DNA of 28,002 bases from a virus (lineage: Duplodnaviria > Caudoviricetes): positions 1 through 28,002 of the IMG/VR virus record IMGVR_UViG_3300047561_000322, one strand, 5' to 3'. The notes beneath the pieces were generated by a model. It was not told the origin of the DNA, ran no database searches, and saw only the letters and a list, made by a program, of their open reading frames with translations. Position 1 is the stretch's first letter. Every line of letters begins with the position of its first letter. A program made the position numbers and the translations under genes. Shown in pieces: positions 9,533 to 21,984 of the stretch.

Positions 9533-10543
9533 TTATGCTGCAATGGCAAACGAACAATTTTTGCACATTGTATCATACGAATGTTTAACAATTCTAACAT
9601 GTTCGTCATTGCCCCAAAACTCTCTCAATGGTGTATTGATAATATTACCAAATTTGTAATCATAATTATAGTCATTGCAACAAATAAATACGTCACCTGC
9701 CGCATTGATGTGTAGCCATTCTGAAGTTCTATCTCCACCATTGTTACATCCAACAACTGATTTTTTATTATTAAAAACAAGTCTCTGAATACTTTCTGCG
9801 TTTGTCATAATGTGACTCAAAGATGCGGCTCGATCAATCAAATATGGATTATCAAAAACATTTAAAGTAGGAAACATCGACTTAGCAAGAGACTTCTGGG
9901 TCGACAACTCCCCTGTTTTCATATCGAGATCCATCTCTAGTGTATCAAATTCTGGACCTTTTTGCAACCATTTTCCCGTGAAGGAGTGTTCATTCAATCC
10001 ATTAATTTGAACGCTGATTCCATTCGGTTTTAAATATTCTAGTTTGTTTTCTGCATATTTGATATTATCAATTAGTTTATCAAACTGTTGTGCTTTAAAT
10101 CCAGTTCGTTTGACCCACAAGTCTCTCTCAAACGCAGGAGTATTAATGCACAATCCAACCACAACATCTTTATATTCATTCATTAAATCTGTTTTTTCGG
10201 GACTCAATGGAACGCCGTTTGTCAAAACCATTGTTACAAACTTACGTTCTCTACAGAGTTGCAATAAATTTTCAAAATGTTTGTAGAGTAGGATTTCGTT
10301 GTAGTGTGCAGTATAAAAGAAATGAAATCCAGGATCCACTAGTCCATCTGGTCGATTTTTTTCTTCAACAATATTGTCAAGAATTTTTGCCAAGTCCTCA
10401 ACAGACATGGTAACTTTACCTTCTACAGGCAACTCTTGATATTTTACTGGACAAAACCAACACTTTGCATTACAATATCCAAATGGATCCAACTGTAAAG
10501 ATTTTATTTTTGTGTTTTTAATTTTTTCACTGATATCAAACAT
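9533..10543 (-). CDS. radical SAM protein with C-terminal SPASM/twitch domain
   Basis: CNAKCWFC (CxxxCxxC), LTNG, and C-terminal C...GDVFICC...FGNI...LREFW...CKNC. Confidence 0.85.
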   Translation of the reverse strand: MFDISEKIKNTKIKSLQLDPFGYCNAKCWFCPVKYQELPVEGKVTMSVEDLAKILDNIVEEKNRPDGLVDPGFHFFYTAHYNEILLYKHFENLLQLCRERKFVTMVLTNGVPLSPEKTDLMNEYKDVVVGLCINTPAFERDLWVKRTGFKAQQFDKLIDNIKYAENKLEYLKPNGISVQINGLNEHSFTGKWLQKGPEFDTLEMDLDMKTGELSTQKSLAKSMFPTLNVFDNPYLIDRAASLSHIMTNAESIQRLVFNNKKSVVGCNNGGDRTSEWLHINAAGDVFICCNDYNYDYKFGNIINTPLREFWGNDEHVRIVKHSYDTMCKNCSFAIAA

Positions 10544-10544
10544 C

Positions 10545-11501
10545 TTAACAATCCTCGTAATTACCAGTCGAACATTCTTCAGTTCGTTCTTTTGTTTTAA
10601 ACTTTATACCTGCATATTTTTCATAGTCAGTAAGAGTTCGAACCGTTCCTAATCCATATTGGCCTTCATATGACCCTGTTAAGATCTTATCGACAGTATT
10701 AAATGCTTCTTTGTTTCTTTCATGAAAATTTATTGCTCGTTTAGAATCGTCTTCTTGATTCCAAACGTGAGGTCGACCTTTTCGTACATTCAATCTATCA
10801 CCATAGTGGTGCCAACTCACAGTTAGACAAGGATGGTATAGATTGAATCCATGCGTCCAACACCTTACGGTTGCAACGATTTCAGTACCCCAAAAAATAA
10901 TATTAGGATCATAAGGAACTTTATTACTAAAACTGCCATGGCCAAACATAAATCCACCATTTAGATATCGTGCTTTGATTGGGCGATTTTTATCGCCAAT
11001 GGGTAACGCTTGACCTTGTGGAAAATTCTTATCTGGTTCATAATACAAAAGAGTTTTACTAACATAACCTGCTGATTGTAATACTCTTTCACCTTCACTA
11101 TTTAATGTGTATGCGGCAGGATATGAAGCCATGATTGCTGGACCAGACATAACATTTTGAAATTGTTGATATTGATCCAACAAAATAGTATCCCAACCTT
11201 CAATAAATTCAAGATGACTGTCGATCTGAAGAAAGTAATCTTCACCATCATACTTCGCATGACATTTATTTAAAGCCCAGCAAAGACCATTGCTTTGTTC
11301 TGGTAAATAATTGTCTAACCTAACATCAATGATGCCTTTGTAACGTTTAAAGTTTTCCCAATCACTTTCAACATCTTGTTGGCAAATTCCAAATGTTAAT
11401 TGCCTAGGATTATTTGCCTGTAGGATCATTCGATCCACAGTCATTGCCAATTCGGCGTCCCTATAAGCAGGAATAGCAACAAAAATACTAGGCTTCGACA
11501 T
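10545..11501 (-). CDS. GT60-like (Skp1/polypeptide GlcNAc-transferase-like) glycosyltransferase
   Basis: IFVAIPAYRDAEL, FGICQQ, EDYFLQIDSH, WD, GGFMF, VPYDP, R.WTHG..LYHP motifs. Confidence 0.75.
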   Translation of the reverse strand: MSKPSIFVAIPAYRDAELAMTVDRMILQANNPRQLTFGICQQDVESDWENFKRYKGIIDVRLDNYLPEQSNGLCWALNKCHAKYDGEDYFLQIDSHLEFIEGWDTILLDQYQQFQNVMSGPAIMASYPAAYTLNSEGERVLQSAGYVSKTLLYYEPDKNFPQGQALPIGDKNRPIKARYLNGGFMFGHGSFSNKVPYDPNIIFWGTEIVATVRCWTHGFNLYHPCLTVSWHHYGDRLNVRKGRPHVWNQEDDSKRAINFHERNKEAFNTVDKILTGSYEGQYGLGTVRTLTDYEKYAGIKFKTKERTEECSTGNYEDC

Positions 11502-11866: not shown

Positions 11867-11891
11867 TGGTGGGCCCAACAGGACTTGAACC
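11867..11891 (-). pseudogene. 3' fragment of disrupted tRNA (probably Ile2): T-loop, acceptor 3' strand, ACCA
   Basis: GGTTCAAGTCCTGTTGGGCCCACCA; TGGGCCC pairs with GGGCCTA of the 5' fragment at 12586-12580. Confidence 0.85.
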
Positions 11892-11908
11892 CAGAGAAAG
11901 ATACTTTG

Positions 11909-11982
11909 TAGGCCCCTCCGGACTTGAACCGGAACAATACAAATTATGAGTTTGCGGCACTAACCAATTATGCTAGAGGCCT
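11909..11982 (-). tRNA. tRNA with CAT anticodon, probably tRNA-Ile2 (lysidine type); CCA not encoded
   Basis: AGGCCTC TA GCAT AATTGGTTA GTGC C GCAAA CTCATAA TTTGT ATTGT TCCGG TTCAAGT CCGGA GGGGCCT A folds as a full cloverleaf; GGCC acceptor and lack of initiator features favour Ile2. Confidence 0.85.
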
Positions 11983-12518
11983 ACAAAGCATCCTTGTCTA
12001 ATCTGTTTTATCTCTGCTTCCTTTATTATACGCAATTTCTTAGGAAATGTCAACCACTTAGCACGATCCCTATCAGTTTCATACCCCTTAACCTCTACAT
12101 ATAAATCCTTAGAGGGTATGTAGAAATCAGGATGATACCATCTTAATCCGTTCCATTCGTATTGGAATGCTTCTGTTGGTCGCTTAGGATCTAATCCTTC
12201 GGCTTTGGCCCAAAAGTAGAAATCAACTTCCCACTGACCTTGTAATTTGATACCATCTACAATGATCTGCTTGGTCCTTCCTCTGTTCTTACTTGAGTAA
12301 GACTCTGGATTGGCTAGTACTGCTCTCTTCATGCTGTCTGATAGTTTCTGCTTGGTCTCATCACTGTGTCTATACGCTGAGTTCTTCGCAACTATCATTG
12401 CCCTACCAGCATCGGTTAATGTTTCCATTATACGATCGGGATTGCTAGGGCACCTTCGAACGTGATTTGAATATCCAATCTTGTTTGTATATTCTTTAGA
12501 ACAGTGTTGACATTGCAT
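11973..12518 (-). CDS. putative homing endonuclease: Zn finger + NUMOD3 + PD-(D/E)XK nuclease domain
   Basis: CQHC...HVRRC, HSDETKQKLSDSMK (NUMOD3), WE...YHPDFYIP..LYVEVKG; GGAG RBS; TAG stop lies within the tRNA-CAT. Confidence 0.8.
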   Translation of the reverse strand: MQCQHCSKEYTNKIGYSNHVRRCPSNPDRIMETLTDAGRAMIVAKNSAYRHSDETKQKLSDSMKRAVLANPESYSSKNRGRTKQIIVDGIKLQGQWEVDFYFWAKAEGLDPKRPTEAFQYEWNGLRWYHPDFYIPSKDLYVEVKGYETDRDRAKWLTFPKKLRIIKEAEIKQIRQGCFVGL

Positions 12519-12527
12519 AATAGCTCC

Positions 12528-12557
12528 GAACTTTAATATGTTTATTTATCAAAGTTC
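12528..12557 (-). promoter_or_regulatory. hairpin abutting nuclease RBS and containing late promoter variant GATAAATA (12543-12550)
   Basis: GAACTTTGAT-AAATAAACAT-ATTAAAGTTC followed directly by GGAG-N5-ATG. Confidence 0.6.
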
Positions 12558-12586
12558 ACTGCTCTGACCAACTGAGCTATAGGCCC
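12553..12586 (-). pseudogene. 5' fragment of disrupted tRNA (probably Ile2), ends at U33 just before the anticodon
   Basis: GGGCCTA TA GCTC AGTTGGTCA GAGC A GTGAA CT: acceptor 5' strand, intact D-arm, anticodon 5' strand. Confidence 0.85.
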
Positions 12587-12594
12587 GATTAAGT

Positions 12595-12623
12595 ATTCTA
12601 ACACTAAACTTGCGTAGTGTCAA
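12595..12623 (-). promoter_or_regulatory. sigma70-type promoter
   Basis: TTGACA-17 nt-TAGAAT, 8 nt upstream of the 5' tRNA fragment. Confidence 0.8.
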
Positions 12624-12631
12624 TAGAATTA

Positions 12632-12714
12632 TGGTGGGGCTGGAGAGACTCGAACTCTCAAGCCGAAGCGTCTGGGCTTAAACCAGATGTGTTTGCCAAT
12701 TTCACCACAGCCCC
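12632..12714 (-). tRNA. trnL: tRNA-Leu(TAA)
   Basis: GGGGCTG.../CAGCCCC ACCA, anticodon arm TCTGG TTTAAGC CCAGA, long variable arm, GAGAG TTCGAGT CTCTC. Confidence 0.92.
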
Positions 12715-13338
12715 ATGTAATAATTCGTTAGCCCTATTATAATTAGCTCCTTTTGGCGTTAATCCAAGTTTTAACAACGCCTGTCTAATATTTTTAGTTG
12801 TATTTAATGCTTGCAAAAAATCATCATCGGAAACATATTGATCTTTTCTTTTATATATGTTTCTTCCTTTCCAAGTTTCGGTAAACGAATGACAGTTAGG
12901 ACATAACAGTTTCAAATTCTCTTTAATATTATTTTGATTATCCCCGTCTATATGTTCCAATTCTAATGTTATGGGTTTATCTAACCATTTGGATAAACCA
13001 CAATTTTCGCAAATATGTCCACGCTCATTAATCAAAAATCCTTTATGGTTTCCTAATTTACCATATTCGAATTTTGTGTTTAAAAATTTATTTTTACTCC
13101 AAGCCATTCTTTTTTTAGTTTCTTCCGGAAGATTTTTATATCTCTCTGATCCAGAAATTCTTAAACCATTTTCATATACTTTTTTTGTCGATTCTCTATT
13201 TTTAGATTTTATGGCTGGACAAGATTGTGATCTTTGTGAACACATTAAATTCCCCGAACCATTTTTGTATGTAGCTACATTTCCACAACCATATGAGCAT
13301 AAATCAGTAGTAATTATTGGATTTGATATAAGTTTCAT
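12658..13338 (-). CDS. HNH endonuclease (putative homing endonuclease) with Cys-rich N-terminus
   Basis: CENC...LELEHIDGDNQNNIKENLKLLCPNCH; last 18 codons plus stop are inside tRNA-Leu(TAA). Confidence 0.9.
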   Translation of the reverse strand: MKLISNPIITTDLCSYGCGNVATYKNGSGNLMCSQRSQSCPAIKSKNRESTKKVYENGLRISGSERYKNLPEETKKRMAWSKNKFLNTKFEYGKLGNHKGFLINERGHICENCGLSKWLDKPITLELEHIDGDNQNNIKENLKLLCPNCHSFTETWKGRNIYKRKDQYVSDDDFLQALNTTKNIRQALLKLGLTPKGANYNRANELLHGAVVKLANTSGLSPDASA

Positions 13339-13355
13339 AAATCGACTCTTGTTAA

Positions 13356-13397
13356 AACGGTATACTTTTATTTATAAAAAAACAAATGTATACCGTT
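13356..13397 (-). promoter_or_regulatory. hairpin enclosing T4 late promoter TATAAATA (13369-13376) upstream of HNH gene
   Basis: Perfect 10-bp arms AACGGTATAC / GTATACCGTT; exact TATAAATA in the loop. Confidence 0.7.
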
Positions 13398-13410
13398 CCA
13401 CCACTACCGC
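13387..13410 (-). pseudogene. 5' fragment of a tRNA-Leu-like gene
   Basis: GCGGTAG TG GTGGAACGGTATACA matches the class II/Leu 5' pattern (TGGTGGAA..GGTA.ACA), then breaks off; 10 nt downstream of the preceding tRNA. Confidence 0.65.
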
Positions 13411-14087: not shown

Positions 14088-14163
14088 TGGTTCCACCTGA
14101 ACGAATCGAACGCTCGACCTTCTCCTTACAAGGGAGTTGCTCTACCAACTGAGCTAAGATGGA
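14088..14163 (-). tRNA. trnT: tRNA-Thr(TGT)
   Basis: TCCATCT/AGGTGGA ACCA, GCTC/GAGC D-stem, loop CTTGTAA, GAGCG TTCGATT CGTTC. Confidence 0.9.
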
Positions 14164-14171
14164 ATAAAAAC

Positions 14172-14194
14172 TTTACCACTAGAACTAAAAGGGC
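14172..14194 (-). pseudogene. possible 5' tRNA fragment (Thr-like)
   Basis: GCCCTTT TA GTTC TAGTGGTAAA resembles acceptor 5' strand plus D-loop; only 23 nt. Confidence 0.45.
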
Positions 14195-20719: not shown

Positions 20720-20748
20720 AGTATACTACTATATATGCGGGATGTCAA
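20720..20748 (-). promoter_or_regulatory. sigma70-type promoter
   Basis: TTGACA-17 nt-TATACT upstream of the HTH gene. Confidence 0.8.
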
Positions 20749-21658
20749 GCAAATTTTGCTTTCCAAAATTTCTGACAAGTTTCATACCATAATTGTTGTT
20801 ACCTTCTGGAATAACAACATTCGGTTTCATTCTTAATTCATTCTTTTTAAAGACAGAGTAGTCAACGTAGTGGTGCCAACGACCATATTTTTTAACCATA
20901 GTTGCAACATCTGGATGAAGATCGACTAACATCTGAGATTTATTTCTTGTTCCCTCAGGATTAAGTGTACCATCTCGCCATTCTTTTTTATCCAATGTAC
21001 CTTCTTTATGATAGAACTCTTCGGTATTACCACCCTTAACAGTTTGAGTTGCTGCTTTACCTTGAAGAAAGGCGTTGAATTGAATAGTGCAATCACCATC
21101 TTTTAGAACACGAAGACAAATATCAGTATCTTCATTGTATCTACCACGCCAACGATGTTTGCAATCATTAGATATCAAAAGTGTCGAATAGATTCTTGTA
21201 TTCTTGACATATGGTGGATAGAAACTATTTGGTGCAATAAAGAATCGATATTGAAATCCAGAGATAGGAACATTCTCATATCGATCAACAAAGTCTTCTG
21301 ATGCTTTGAAAATTGCACCAGATTCTACACGAATACGTTTATTATAATTCAATCTGTAGAAGTCATCGATGTTATCGTCAAGAACCCAATGTTTTTCAGA
21401 ACCAATTGAGATTGCATGATCCCAACACCAGTTTCTGGCACGTCCTGGACCATCTCCATGATTAGAGAACGGTGCAACTAGAAGTGTTACATAATCTCTA
21501 ATCTTAAAATTATCTAACGCTTGATCATACAACTTTTCATCTTGTGGTTCAATTGTAATGTAATGAGGCACTTTCATTCTAGACAAAGATCTAGAAGTCT
21601 TCATTGTCTCATGTCGACCTTTAGAGATAATATAAACAGGATGAACTGGATTGGTCAT
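20729..21658 (-). CDS. GREB1-like / TET-associated-type (TAGT) glycosyltransferase, candidate DNA base glycosyltransferase
   Basis: PVYIISKGR, G.GRARN, HWVLDDNI, RIYS.LL, WRGRYNEDTD..LRVLK.G, KGGNT; start re-called to ATG 21658 (ATGA overlap). Confidence 0.7.
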   Translation of the reverse strand: MTNPVHPVYIISKGRHETMKTSRSLSRMKVPHYITIEPQDEKLYDQALDNFKIRDYVTLLVAPFSNHGDGPGRARNWCWDHAISIGSEKHWVLDDNIDDFYRLNYNKRIRVESGAIFKASEDFVDRYENVPISGFQYRFFIAPNSFYPPYVKNTRIYSTLLISNDCKHRWRGRYNEDTDICLRVLKDGDCTIQFNAFLQGKAATQTVKGGNTEEFYHKEGTLDKKEWRDGTLNPEGTRNKSQMLVDLHPDVATMVKKYGRWHHYVDYSVFKKNELRMKPNVVIPEGNNNYGMKLVRNFGKQNLLDIPHI

Positions 21659-21984
21659 TCTTCGATCCACCTCAACAAAGAATTCTCTTCACGATCTAGT
21701 TTTGGATACCAAATACTTTTAGTTTTCTCAGACAAATTTTGATCAACTAATTTAGCAAATGCATCATAGTCTTCTTTATTTCTAAAGTTTAGATACAGTT
21801 GTTTATATGGTGGATTTTTATCCTGATCATATTCAGGCATTCCTTTCCAGTGTTTCTTCCAATCAGGAGTACTTGTAGAAGGATCTGGAATATCACCTAA
21901 AAGATCTTCAAACGTAAGTGCTTGCGTAGTATCTTTAACACCAATACAATTTTCATATTCTACACTTTCATCAACTTTCATCAT
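21655..21984 (-). CDS. hypothetical protein coupled to the TAGT-like gene
   Basis: 109 aa; WKGMPEY.Q...F...EDY..F...Q...TKSIWYP. Confidence 0.7.
   Translation of the reverse strand: MMKVDESVEYENCIGVKDTTQALTFEDLLGDIPDPSTSTPDWKKHWKGMPEYDQDKNPPYKQLYLNFRNKEDYDAFAKLVDQNLSEKTKSIWYPKLDREENSLLRWIEE

Follow-up and report, generated by a model that had tools for sequence, protein, structure and literature searches.

A 28,002-nucleotide (nt) stretch of tailed-phage DNA (Duplodnaviria; Caudoviricetes; IMG/VR record IMGVR_UViG_3300047561_000322, positions 1 to 28,002; hereafter the window) contains two adjoining cassettes, each combining a nuclease gene with a transfer RNA (tRNA) gene, within a minus-strand tRNA cluster (ARAGORN, Rfam). 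We put the probability at about 80% that these are two independent mobile cassettes, likely free-standing homing endonucleases that replace the same-anticodon tRNA gene they target. At the level of sequence comparison, the cassettes are insertion-replacements with fixed junctions, optional in their presence, coupled to an anticodon class and subject to a decay that keeps the tRNA. Cassette 1 pairs an HNH nuclease with tRNA-Leu(TAA), and cassette 2 a PD-(D/E)XK nuclease with a CAT tRNA of the Ile2 type. The original prediction, made from the letters of the window, had described a four-part layout, and this is indeed present twice on the minus strand (Table 1): a stump of a resident tRNA gene, a hairpin with a late-promoter motif, a nuclease open reading frame (ORF) and a carried tRNA gene that holds the stop codon of the nuclease. 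The window is an entire contig from a T4-like phage, with DNA polymerase B, UvsX, a gp41-type helicase, gp44/62, gp45 and RegA all encoded (Pfam, PHROG), and the public runs that match it best are freshwater metagenomes.

Table 1. Features of the two nuclease-tRNA cassettes and of a third scar in the window.
Feature	Position	Strand	Remarks
Cassette 1, 5' stump, nt 1-24 of resident tRNA-Leu(TAA)	13387..13410	-	Identical to the start of the intact L207 gene
Cassette 1, inverted repeat/hairpin 1 spanning TATAAATA (13376-13369)	13354..13399	-	Fold z -4.13; stump forms the 5' arm
Cassette 1, HNH nuclease gene, 226 amino acids, zinc-finger HNH core and predicted C-terminal helix-turn-helix	12658..13338	-	Open ORF
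Cassette 1, carried tRNA-Leu(TAA), CCA encoded	12632..12714	-	ARAGORN and Rfam; not in empty alleles
Cassette 1 trailer, sigma-70-type promoter match, 11/12, before the next tRNA gene	12595..12623	-	
Cassette 2, 5' stump, nt 1-34 of resident CAT gene, broken just 5' of the anticodon	12553..12586	-	Exact prefix of the intact gene
Cassette 2, hairpin 2 spanning GATAAATA (12550-12543)	12522..12563	-	Fold z -2.76; stump forms the 5' arm
Cassette 2, PD-(D/E)XK nuclease gene, 181 amino acids, N-terminal zinc finger and NUMOD3-like helix	11973..12518	-	Open ORF
Perfect sigma-70-type match TTGACA-17-TATAAT inside the PD-(D/E)XK gene, 42 nt upstream of the carried tRNA	12025..12053	-	
Leader-trailer helix, 12-13 bp, 11995-11983 with 11909-11897, prolonging the acceptor stem of the carried CAT tRNA	11897..11995	-	
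Cassette 2, carried CAT tRNA, Ile2 type, CAA in place of CCA	11908..11982	-	ARAGORN and Rfam
Cassette 2, 3' stump, last 25 nt of resident CAT gene, T-arm to CCA	11867..11891	-	Exact suffix of the intact gene
Third scar without nuclease: 23-nt Thr(TGT) stump (14194-14172), then diverged Thr(TGT) gene (14163-14088)	14088..14194	-	

Junctions were set by blastn and exact matching, with locus L207 as the resident reference. Empty alleles, which had been proposed as the place to look, were found in relatives and are without the carried tRNAs: in L198, L202, L205, L207, L209 and L211 both resident genes are intact, lie 4-7 nt apart and follow the same upstream gene as in the window, with L198 and L207 being 95% identical to the window across 630 nt upstream. 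Each stump reproduces the corresponding resident end without a mismatch (24, 34 and 25 nt), and these matches to L207 confirm that the stumps derive from genes with the same anticodons as the carried tRNAs. The HNH cassette (13386-12587, 800 nt) takes the place of nt 25-84 of the Leu gene and a short spacer. The PD-(D/E)XK cassette (12552-11892, 661 nt) takes the place of 18 nt including the anticodon, and contigs from runs X4 and X5 link 11891 to 12553 via exactly these 18 lost bases. The 24-nt Leu start was detected in 17 viral loci, running on into an intact Leu(TAA) gene in 16 and into a cassette in one (L204), and the CAT-stump pattern continues with CATAA in 118 of at least 120 viral matches.

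Four allele combinations were observed, namely neither cassette (the L198 group and run X5), HNH only (L001, L002), PD-(D/E)XK only (a 2.5-kb contig from run X7) and both (the window). One HNH cassette (96% amino-acid identity) was present in two Leu alleles with different flanks and an identical left junction, and L289 is the empty counterpart of L002. A cultured pair shows the same for the CAT site, with PhaxI possessing the stump, nuclease and CAT tRNA and FEC14 an intact tRNA-Ile in an identical flank; the cultured phage Kuja has the PhaxI-like layout. Resident alleles also occur as loose ends in runs X1 and X2 of the likely source sample, hence targets are available there. Decayed cassettes were found in L210 (= L031), L290, L030 and L032, where most of the nuclease is gone and the carried tRNA and 3' stump are retained. 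The third scar in the window, in which a diverged Thr(TGT) gene comes after a Thr(TGT) stump with no intervening ORF, resembles a cassette that has lost its nuclease; L211 has an intact gene with the identical 23-nt start, and L202 has the same scar. Furthermore, the resident Leu site is occupied in L293, L320 and L321 by different nuclease-like ORFs that each bring a Leu(TAA) gene of their own, and may be a contested homing site.

Both nuclease ORFs stand alone, and Rfam finds tRNAs only, with no intron, in the window. The cassette 1 protein matches PHROG 14736 (HNH endonuclease, 4e-31) and HEase in PADLOC (4e-21), while its Pfam HNH score of 18.2 is under the cut-off of 21.4 and its NCBIfam HNH-domain matches are weak and far under cut-off; residues C110, C113, H129, N141, C146, C149 and H150 are invariant across 69 HNH sequences. 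Its predicted model (mean predicted local distance difference test score, pLDDT, of 85) matches HNH domains at Z 4.7-6.1, all below 8. The cassette 2 protein matches PHROG 15137 (endonuclease, 1e-20) and scores 17.4 for Pfam NUMOD3, under the cut-off of 20.4, with P130, D131, E142 and K144 invariant across 74 PD-(D/E)XK sequences. Its predicted model (mean pLDDT 89) matches TnsA, Vsr and I-Bth0305I at Z 7.0-7.4, the top fold match being a RAP domain (Z 7.7). A sequence search of solved structures with both nuclease alignments returned nothing significant.

The carried genes differ substantially from those they replace. The carried Leu(TAA) gene is identical to the resident at 57/85 positions and differs in the D-arm and anticodon loop, and the carried CAT gene is identical at 57/79. 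Resident and carried CAT genes both satisfy the Ile2 criteria G3-C70, C4-G69 and C5-G68 (PMC1635315), and G3 or A3 is present in 38 of 40 distinct carried CAT genes. Nuclease and tRNA are physically fused, the HNH frame entering the carried Leu tRNA by 57 nt (its final 18 codons and stop) and the PD-(D/E)XK stop codon forming positions 8-10 of the carried CAT tRNA.

Both nuclease families were surveyed using the best 80 loci per scan. For PD-(D/E)XK, 116 loci were reduced to 62 distinct ones, with the window, deletion derivatives and two cultured phages counted in. In 48 of these 62 the nearest tRNA downstream is CAT (overlapping the stop codon in 42), compared with 1 of 77 HNH loci. The remaining 14 comprise overlapping (2), degenerate (1) and intron-bearing (1) CAT genes, CAT on the opposite strand (5, two with group I introns), upstream CAT (3) and CAT behind a Leu gene (1), so that with all orientations and intron-bearing genes counted 61/62 adjoin a CAT gene; the sole locus without one is a 25%-identical relative tied to Phe. 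A second ORF in L048, a distant PD-(D/E)XK relative (25% identity), shows the same layout at another tRNA, with a Phe-like 5' stump, an overlapping Phe(GAA) gene and a 3' stump. Stump motifs for this family were composed after inspection of the data, and the 5' motif, which stops immediately short of the anticodon, is found upstream in 40 of the 54 full-length PD-(D/E)XK loci (shuffles 0.2, maximum 2). The 3' stump motif lies downstream in 22/49 PD-(D/E)XK loci versus 20/537 other tRNA genes. Across the family, the left junction falls at a constant position in the anticodon loop.

For HNH, the metagenome scan covered 9/64 parts and the second viral scan 46/64 parts, and the HNH counts apply among the matches listed. 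In the close set of 25 distinct HNH loci, 23 adjoin or lie in a Leu gene, which is downstream in 20 (nine with a group I intron), upstream in two and in one case has the ORF inside its intron; the other two have broken ORFs and were left unassessed. The HNH gene sits in a group I intron of Leu(TAA) in L056, L058, L061 and L350, with Rfam support of 55.6 bits for L056 and 27 bits for L061, while L058 has no Rfam match and was read by eye; introns are where classic homing endonucleases reside. ORF-less group I introns occur in the phage Leu(TAA) genes of L038, L039, L041-L044, L047-L049, L098, L343 and L344, and in these genes the stop of a free-standing HNH ORF falls within the 5' exon. By eye, many HNH homologues end in peptides resembling translated Leu-tRNA starts. 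Introns were also seen directly after the anticodon of CAT genes beside PD-(D/E)XK homologues (group I; L166, L169 and L170), just upstream of the ORF in L166 as a second intron, and in another tRNA after the HNH gene in L065. A permuted tmRNA match (78.7 bits) is located just downstream of the cassette in the phage contig L156 (L156:2310-2634).

These layouts suggest how the cassettes may move. The nuclease would be made late, from the promoter within the hairpin, and would cleave the resident gene of co-infecting phages in its D-arm/anticodon region. In repair from the donor, left-hand homology would then come from the 5' part of the tRNA, and right-hand homology from its 3' part or from the tRNA gene that follows. 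The donor itself would be spared since its own tRNA is spelled differently or, in relatives, since a group I intron interrupts it. The replaced stretch at the insertion point (18 or about 65 nt) suggests, as far as the alignments go, a cut at the insertion site; for T4 seg genes the cut site is reported hundreds of bases from the insertion site (PMC2988022). The weight of the late-promoter motif comes from its position, as its number in the window (6 found, all on the coding strand, versus 5.0 expected) is not above chance and was rejected as proof.

The core of hairpin 1 stops short of the likely ribosome-binding site and hairpin 2 pairs part of the GGAG ribosome-binding site; from the late promoter onward the cassette 2 leader folds at only -1.6 kcal/mol. 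The inverted repeat of hairpin 1 is possibly an operator as well as an RNA hairpin. The D-arm motif GGTA[G/T]AC was present at most 100 nt upstream, on either strand, in 15/25 close HNH loci versus 0.4 in shuffles, and its closeness to the HNH promoter suggests, by analogy, an operator like that of I-TevI (PMC2988022). A single RNA run gave one 252-nt contig at depth 2, too little to read transcription or processing. We also considered whether translation of each nuclease depends on the tRNA that it carries. ATA counts are 6/12 and 6/11 in the two nuclease genes (66/539 in 22 other ORFs) and TTA counts 15/25 and 5/10 (105/554), hence both codons are enriched alike in both genes, as under a general bias, and this idea was rejected.

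Cassette 2 contains two further elements, one within its nuclease gene and one around its tRNA. Promoter scores of at least 10/12 were found in 23/47 stretches equivalent to the promoter inside the PD-(D/E)XK gene, compared with 2/44 control stretches. TATAAT is retained at the same codon site in 29/36 homologues, against codon expectation: the Ile codon at this site is ATA in 31/36 (45% elsewhere), and the preceding codon ends in T in 32/36 (33% elsewhere) across several amino acids. The promoter is also retained in the deletion derivatives L210 and L030, the L210 deletion ending 12 nt before it, and embedded promoters are known in T4 homing endonuclease genes (PMC2988022). Such an early promoter would maintain expression of the new tRNA. 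In cassette 1, the trailer promoter is missing from empty alleles, whose spacer here is only 4-7 nt, and similar trailer promoters occur in L001, L002 and L321, the last a different ORF-plus-Leu cassette.

The leader-trailer helix of cassette 2 likewise recurs in the family. At least 9 of 11 flanking positions are paired in 22/49 carried-CAT rows (these 22 including three near-duplicates and one gene not directly fused) versus 8/806 other tRNA genes. CCA is absent in 20 of the 22 rows with the helix and present in all 27 rows without it. Among 18 rows picked for having the helix, two helix columns change on both sides, and in the 18 carried CAT genes the cloverleaf covaries at 15 further pairs, hence the carried CAT genes are under selection as tRNAs. 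CCA helps RNase P, and precursors without it are cleaved less well (PMC1874595). Because 5' processing would remove the stop codon from the nuclease message, the CCA-less helix probably delays tRNA processing and would thereby slow the stripping of that codon.

Several observations weigh against homing with replacement of the target. Sequence escape by respelling, at most a putatively selected trait, is the weakest link: 3 of 24 distinct carried CAT windows, together with L156, still fit the recipient-derived motif, which fits only 9/50 other CAT windows. Fold matches of both nucleases all lie under Z 8, i.e. at the level of a common fold. In the cultured phages Apostate, AsFcp_1 and CkP1 (L335, L337 and L338), a distant PD-(D/E)XK homologue interrupts the CAT gene at its anticodon loop, leaving both halves in place, and no CAT gene was found within the 700 nt flank and no intron by Rfam, hence the insertion site is pinned and replacement is not obligatory. 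The original prediction had called the targets essential RNA genes; these three phages, with no other CAT gene in the flank, speak against this, as does the T4 tRNA region, which has been termed non-essential (PMC2330249). L335 also has a tRNA gene with a CTA (amber) anticodon upstream. For the HNH set of all distances (77 loci), an intron-free Leu gene is the first downstream tRNA in 22 and 41 have none, the link to Leu weakening with distance, and a forward Leu stump was flagged in just 7/25 close loci, one of which is an intact gene. Furthermore, carried tRNAs are dispersed across the tree of nucleases, hence the pairing of nuclease and tRNA is loose, and the loci are related, so that counts are not independent events.

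This looseness would also fit a different explanation, in which tRNA genes are recombination hot spots, a variant tRNA is the favoured cargo, for instance as a means of evading host defences that cut tRNAs, and the nuclease rides along or cuts loosely in the manner of SegB, resident and carried genes alike. Carried tRNAs are swapped among nuclease clades, the Thr scar has a stump and replacement without a nuclease, several ORF-plus-Leu cassettes share one site (L293, L320, L321), and SegB cuts many tRNA genes including those of its own phage (PMC2330249). We nevertheless regard this as rather improbable: each nuclease family is bound to one anticodon class, the left junction is constant in the anticodon loop across the family, intron-encoded members mark the same Leu site, and the deletions observed in L210 and L290 account for scars free of a nuclease. 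The constant company of nuclease and same-class tRNA could alternatively reflect a toxin-antidote pair, with proteins that destroy host tRNA-Ile2 or tRNA-Leu(UAA), or its gene, and a phage tRNA that resists them, by which the phage would take control of translation. By eye, some matches to the CAT-stump pattern look like tRNA genes of bacteria situated at the ends of prophages, and tRNA splicing endonucleases are among the fold matches (Z up to 5.6); however, the better fold matches are DNases and the catalytic motifs are those of metal-dependent DNases. Late-promoter leaders suit homing over early takeover, and a toxin-antidote pair leaves the position of the cassettes inside the phage's own resident genes, with fixed junctions, unexplained. 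We therefore think it very unlikely, and favour homing by replacement of the target gene.

The tandem linkage of the two cassettes rests on the window's own assembly, with no contig across the 34-nt stump that joins them in two runs (X1, X2) of the likely source sample. The tandem could be an assembly chimera of two single-cassette alleles joined via this shared stump, each cassette being real, and this alternative, which bears on the linkage alone, we judge unlikely. Apart from the missing bridging contig, it would agree with the presence of resident alleles on either side in both samples and with the lack of a second double-cassette locus among the loci fetched. However, depths in run X2 are similar for both cassettes (22.8, 17.8 and 20.4 for the pieces, fitting one genome), the pieces overlap with 0-1 differences, and a break at the shared tRNA stretch is expected for short-word contigs. 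Piece depths in run X1 are uneven (10.4, 6, 2.9 and 13.3).

The nearest known phage system is SegB of T4/T6, a free-standing endonuclease in a tRNA cluster that cuts tRNA genes, homes in co-infection and has a hairpin and late promoter upstream (PMC2330249, PMC13096335). SegB differs in being a GIY-YIG enzyme, whereas the window nucleases match HNH and PD-(D/E)XK types (Pfam, PHROG). It recognises a T-loop consensus of many tRNAs, sits between genes and moves a tRNA block, and the available parts of these sources do not describe for it a same-anticodon stump or a tRNA fused to the ORF end. To speak of a candidate new system, as was done at the outset, was an overstatement, in that its logic is known in fungal mitochondria (PMC3630166) and control by a hairpin with a late promoter, like promoters embedded in the gene, has been reported for homing endonucleases of T4 (PMC2988022). 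In fungal mitochondria, endonuclease ORFs with a foreign gene end occur in Allomyces atp6 and Glomus atp6, atp9, cox2 and nad3 (PMC3630166). As here, there is no splicing and no integrase, the element brings a diverged replacement, and the displaced native part is closer to relatives than the carried copy (in the window, 100% for the stumps versus 57/85 and 57/79). They differ in targeting protein genes with LAGLIDADG or GIY-YIG enzymes and in that the resident 5' part forms a hybrid gene (PMC3630166), whereas in the window a whole tRNA is carried, the resident 5' part turns into a leader hairpin and the end of the ORF lies within the tRNA.

Other comparisons are more distant. Under collaborative homing, the intron-adjacent and intron-encoded states found among relatives are expected (PMC2988022, PMC3984707), but the window alleles are without introns and the cases described in the portions of these papers available are protein genes, not phage tRNA genes. 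An intron-encoded PD-(D/E)XK-fold enzyme is similar in that it homes into a CAT tRNA gene at the anticodon loop; as far as its source is available, it differs in acting on an initiator tRNA in a bacterial chromosome, and it shows no sequence match and Z 4.3. In bacterial long tRNA arrays, a conserved HNH homing endonuclease gene adjoins tRNAs and is a proposed spreader, and the text available does not describe it as replacing any particular tRNA gene (PMC8421152). Homing endonucleases encoded within tRNA introns are matched only by the HNH relatives L056, L058, L061 and L350. Integrase elements at tRNA genes rebuild the same tRNA through a direct repeat, whereas here the carried genes share 67-72% identity with the resident and 18-60 bases of the resident have gone. 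The arrangement had also been called free of splicing and of integrase: the latter agrees with the absence of an integrase among 35 ORFs (Pfam), and the former applies to the window, without an intron by Rfam, but not to relatives, which use group I introns in the same tRNAs. Related cases of cargo or duplication (PMC10448857, PMC6279837 and PMC7487136) are, in their available parts, not this arrangement. A nuclease fused to a replacement tRNA was not found described in the open-access literature searched.

The cassettes would offer a testable selfish-gene reason for the strong tRNA-gene differences between close phage relatives. Such differences are usually explained by codon use or by host defences that cut tRNAs. 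Homing by replacement would amount to a natural 'cut target, carry recoded spare' drive in RNA genes, arrived at with two unrelated nuclease folds, and the PD-(D/E)XK family (503 clusters) would be a new enzyme set directed at the tRNA-Ile2 anticodon region. ORF-tRNA overlaps and stumps escape annotation. A more speculative extension, which we hold to be possible but doubtful when its parts are taken jointly, is that anticodon-specific homing endonucleases of unrelated folds could be a main engine of phage tRNA turnover; that they might overwrite resident tRNA genes with recoded copies, the nucleases then decaying and the new tRNA staying; that the families could pass through recoded tRNA, intron-protected tRNA and intron-encoded nuclease as a living series showing the birth of mobile tRNA introns; and that the CCA-less Ile2 helix and the promoter set in synonymous codons might form a switch by which one locus yields either nuclease message or tRNA.

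Other remnants and unusual genes were observed nearby. At 14083-14015, an AT-rich stretch leads into the final 27 nt of a tRNA-Trp gene, which L001 and L017 have intact, and a late-promoter motif comes next (14014-14007); this Trp 3' end is another tRNA remnant. A Gly-like tRNA gene with an odd loop (13493-13421; ARAGORN anticodon ACC, no Rfam match) is kept in 19 copies with stem changes, with a TCC call in some, and is preceded by a perfect sigma-70 match (13653-13625) inside an RNase H-like ORF; it is possibly a tRNA that has diverged, or else a small RNA. Further afield, a TET-associated glycosyltransferase (20729-21670), a GlcNAc-type glycosyltransferase (10545-11501) and a radical SAM gene (9533-10543) are located among the replication genes, which suggests DNA or protein modification pathways.

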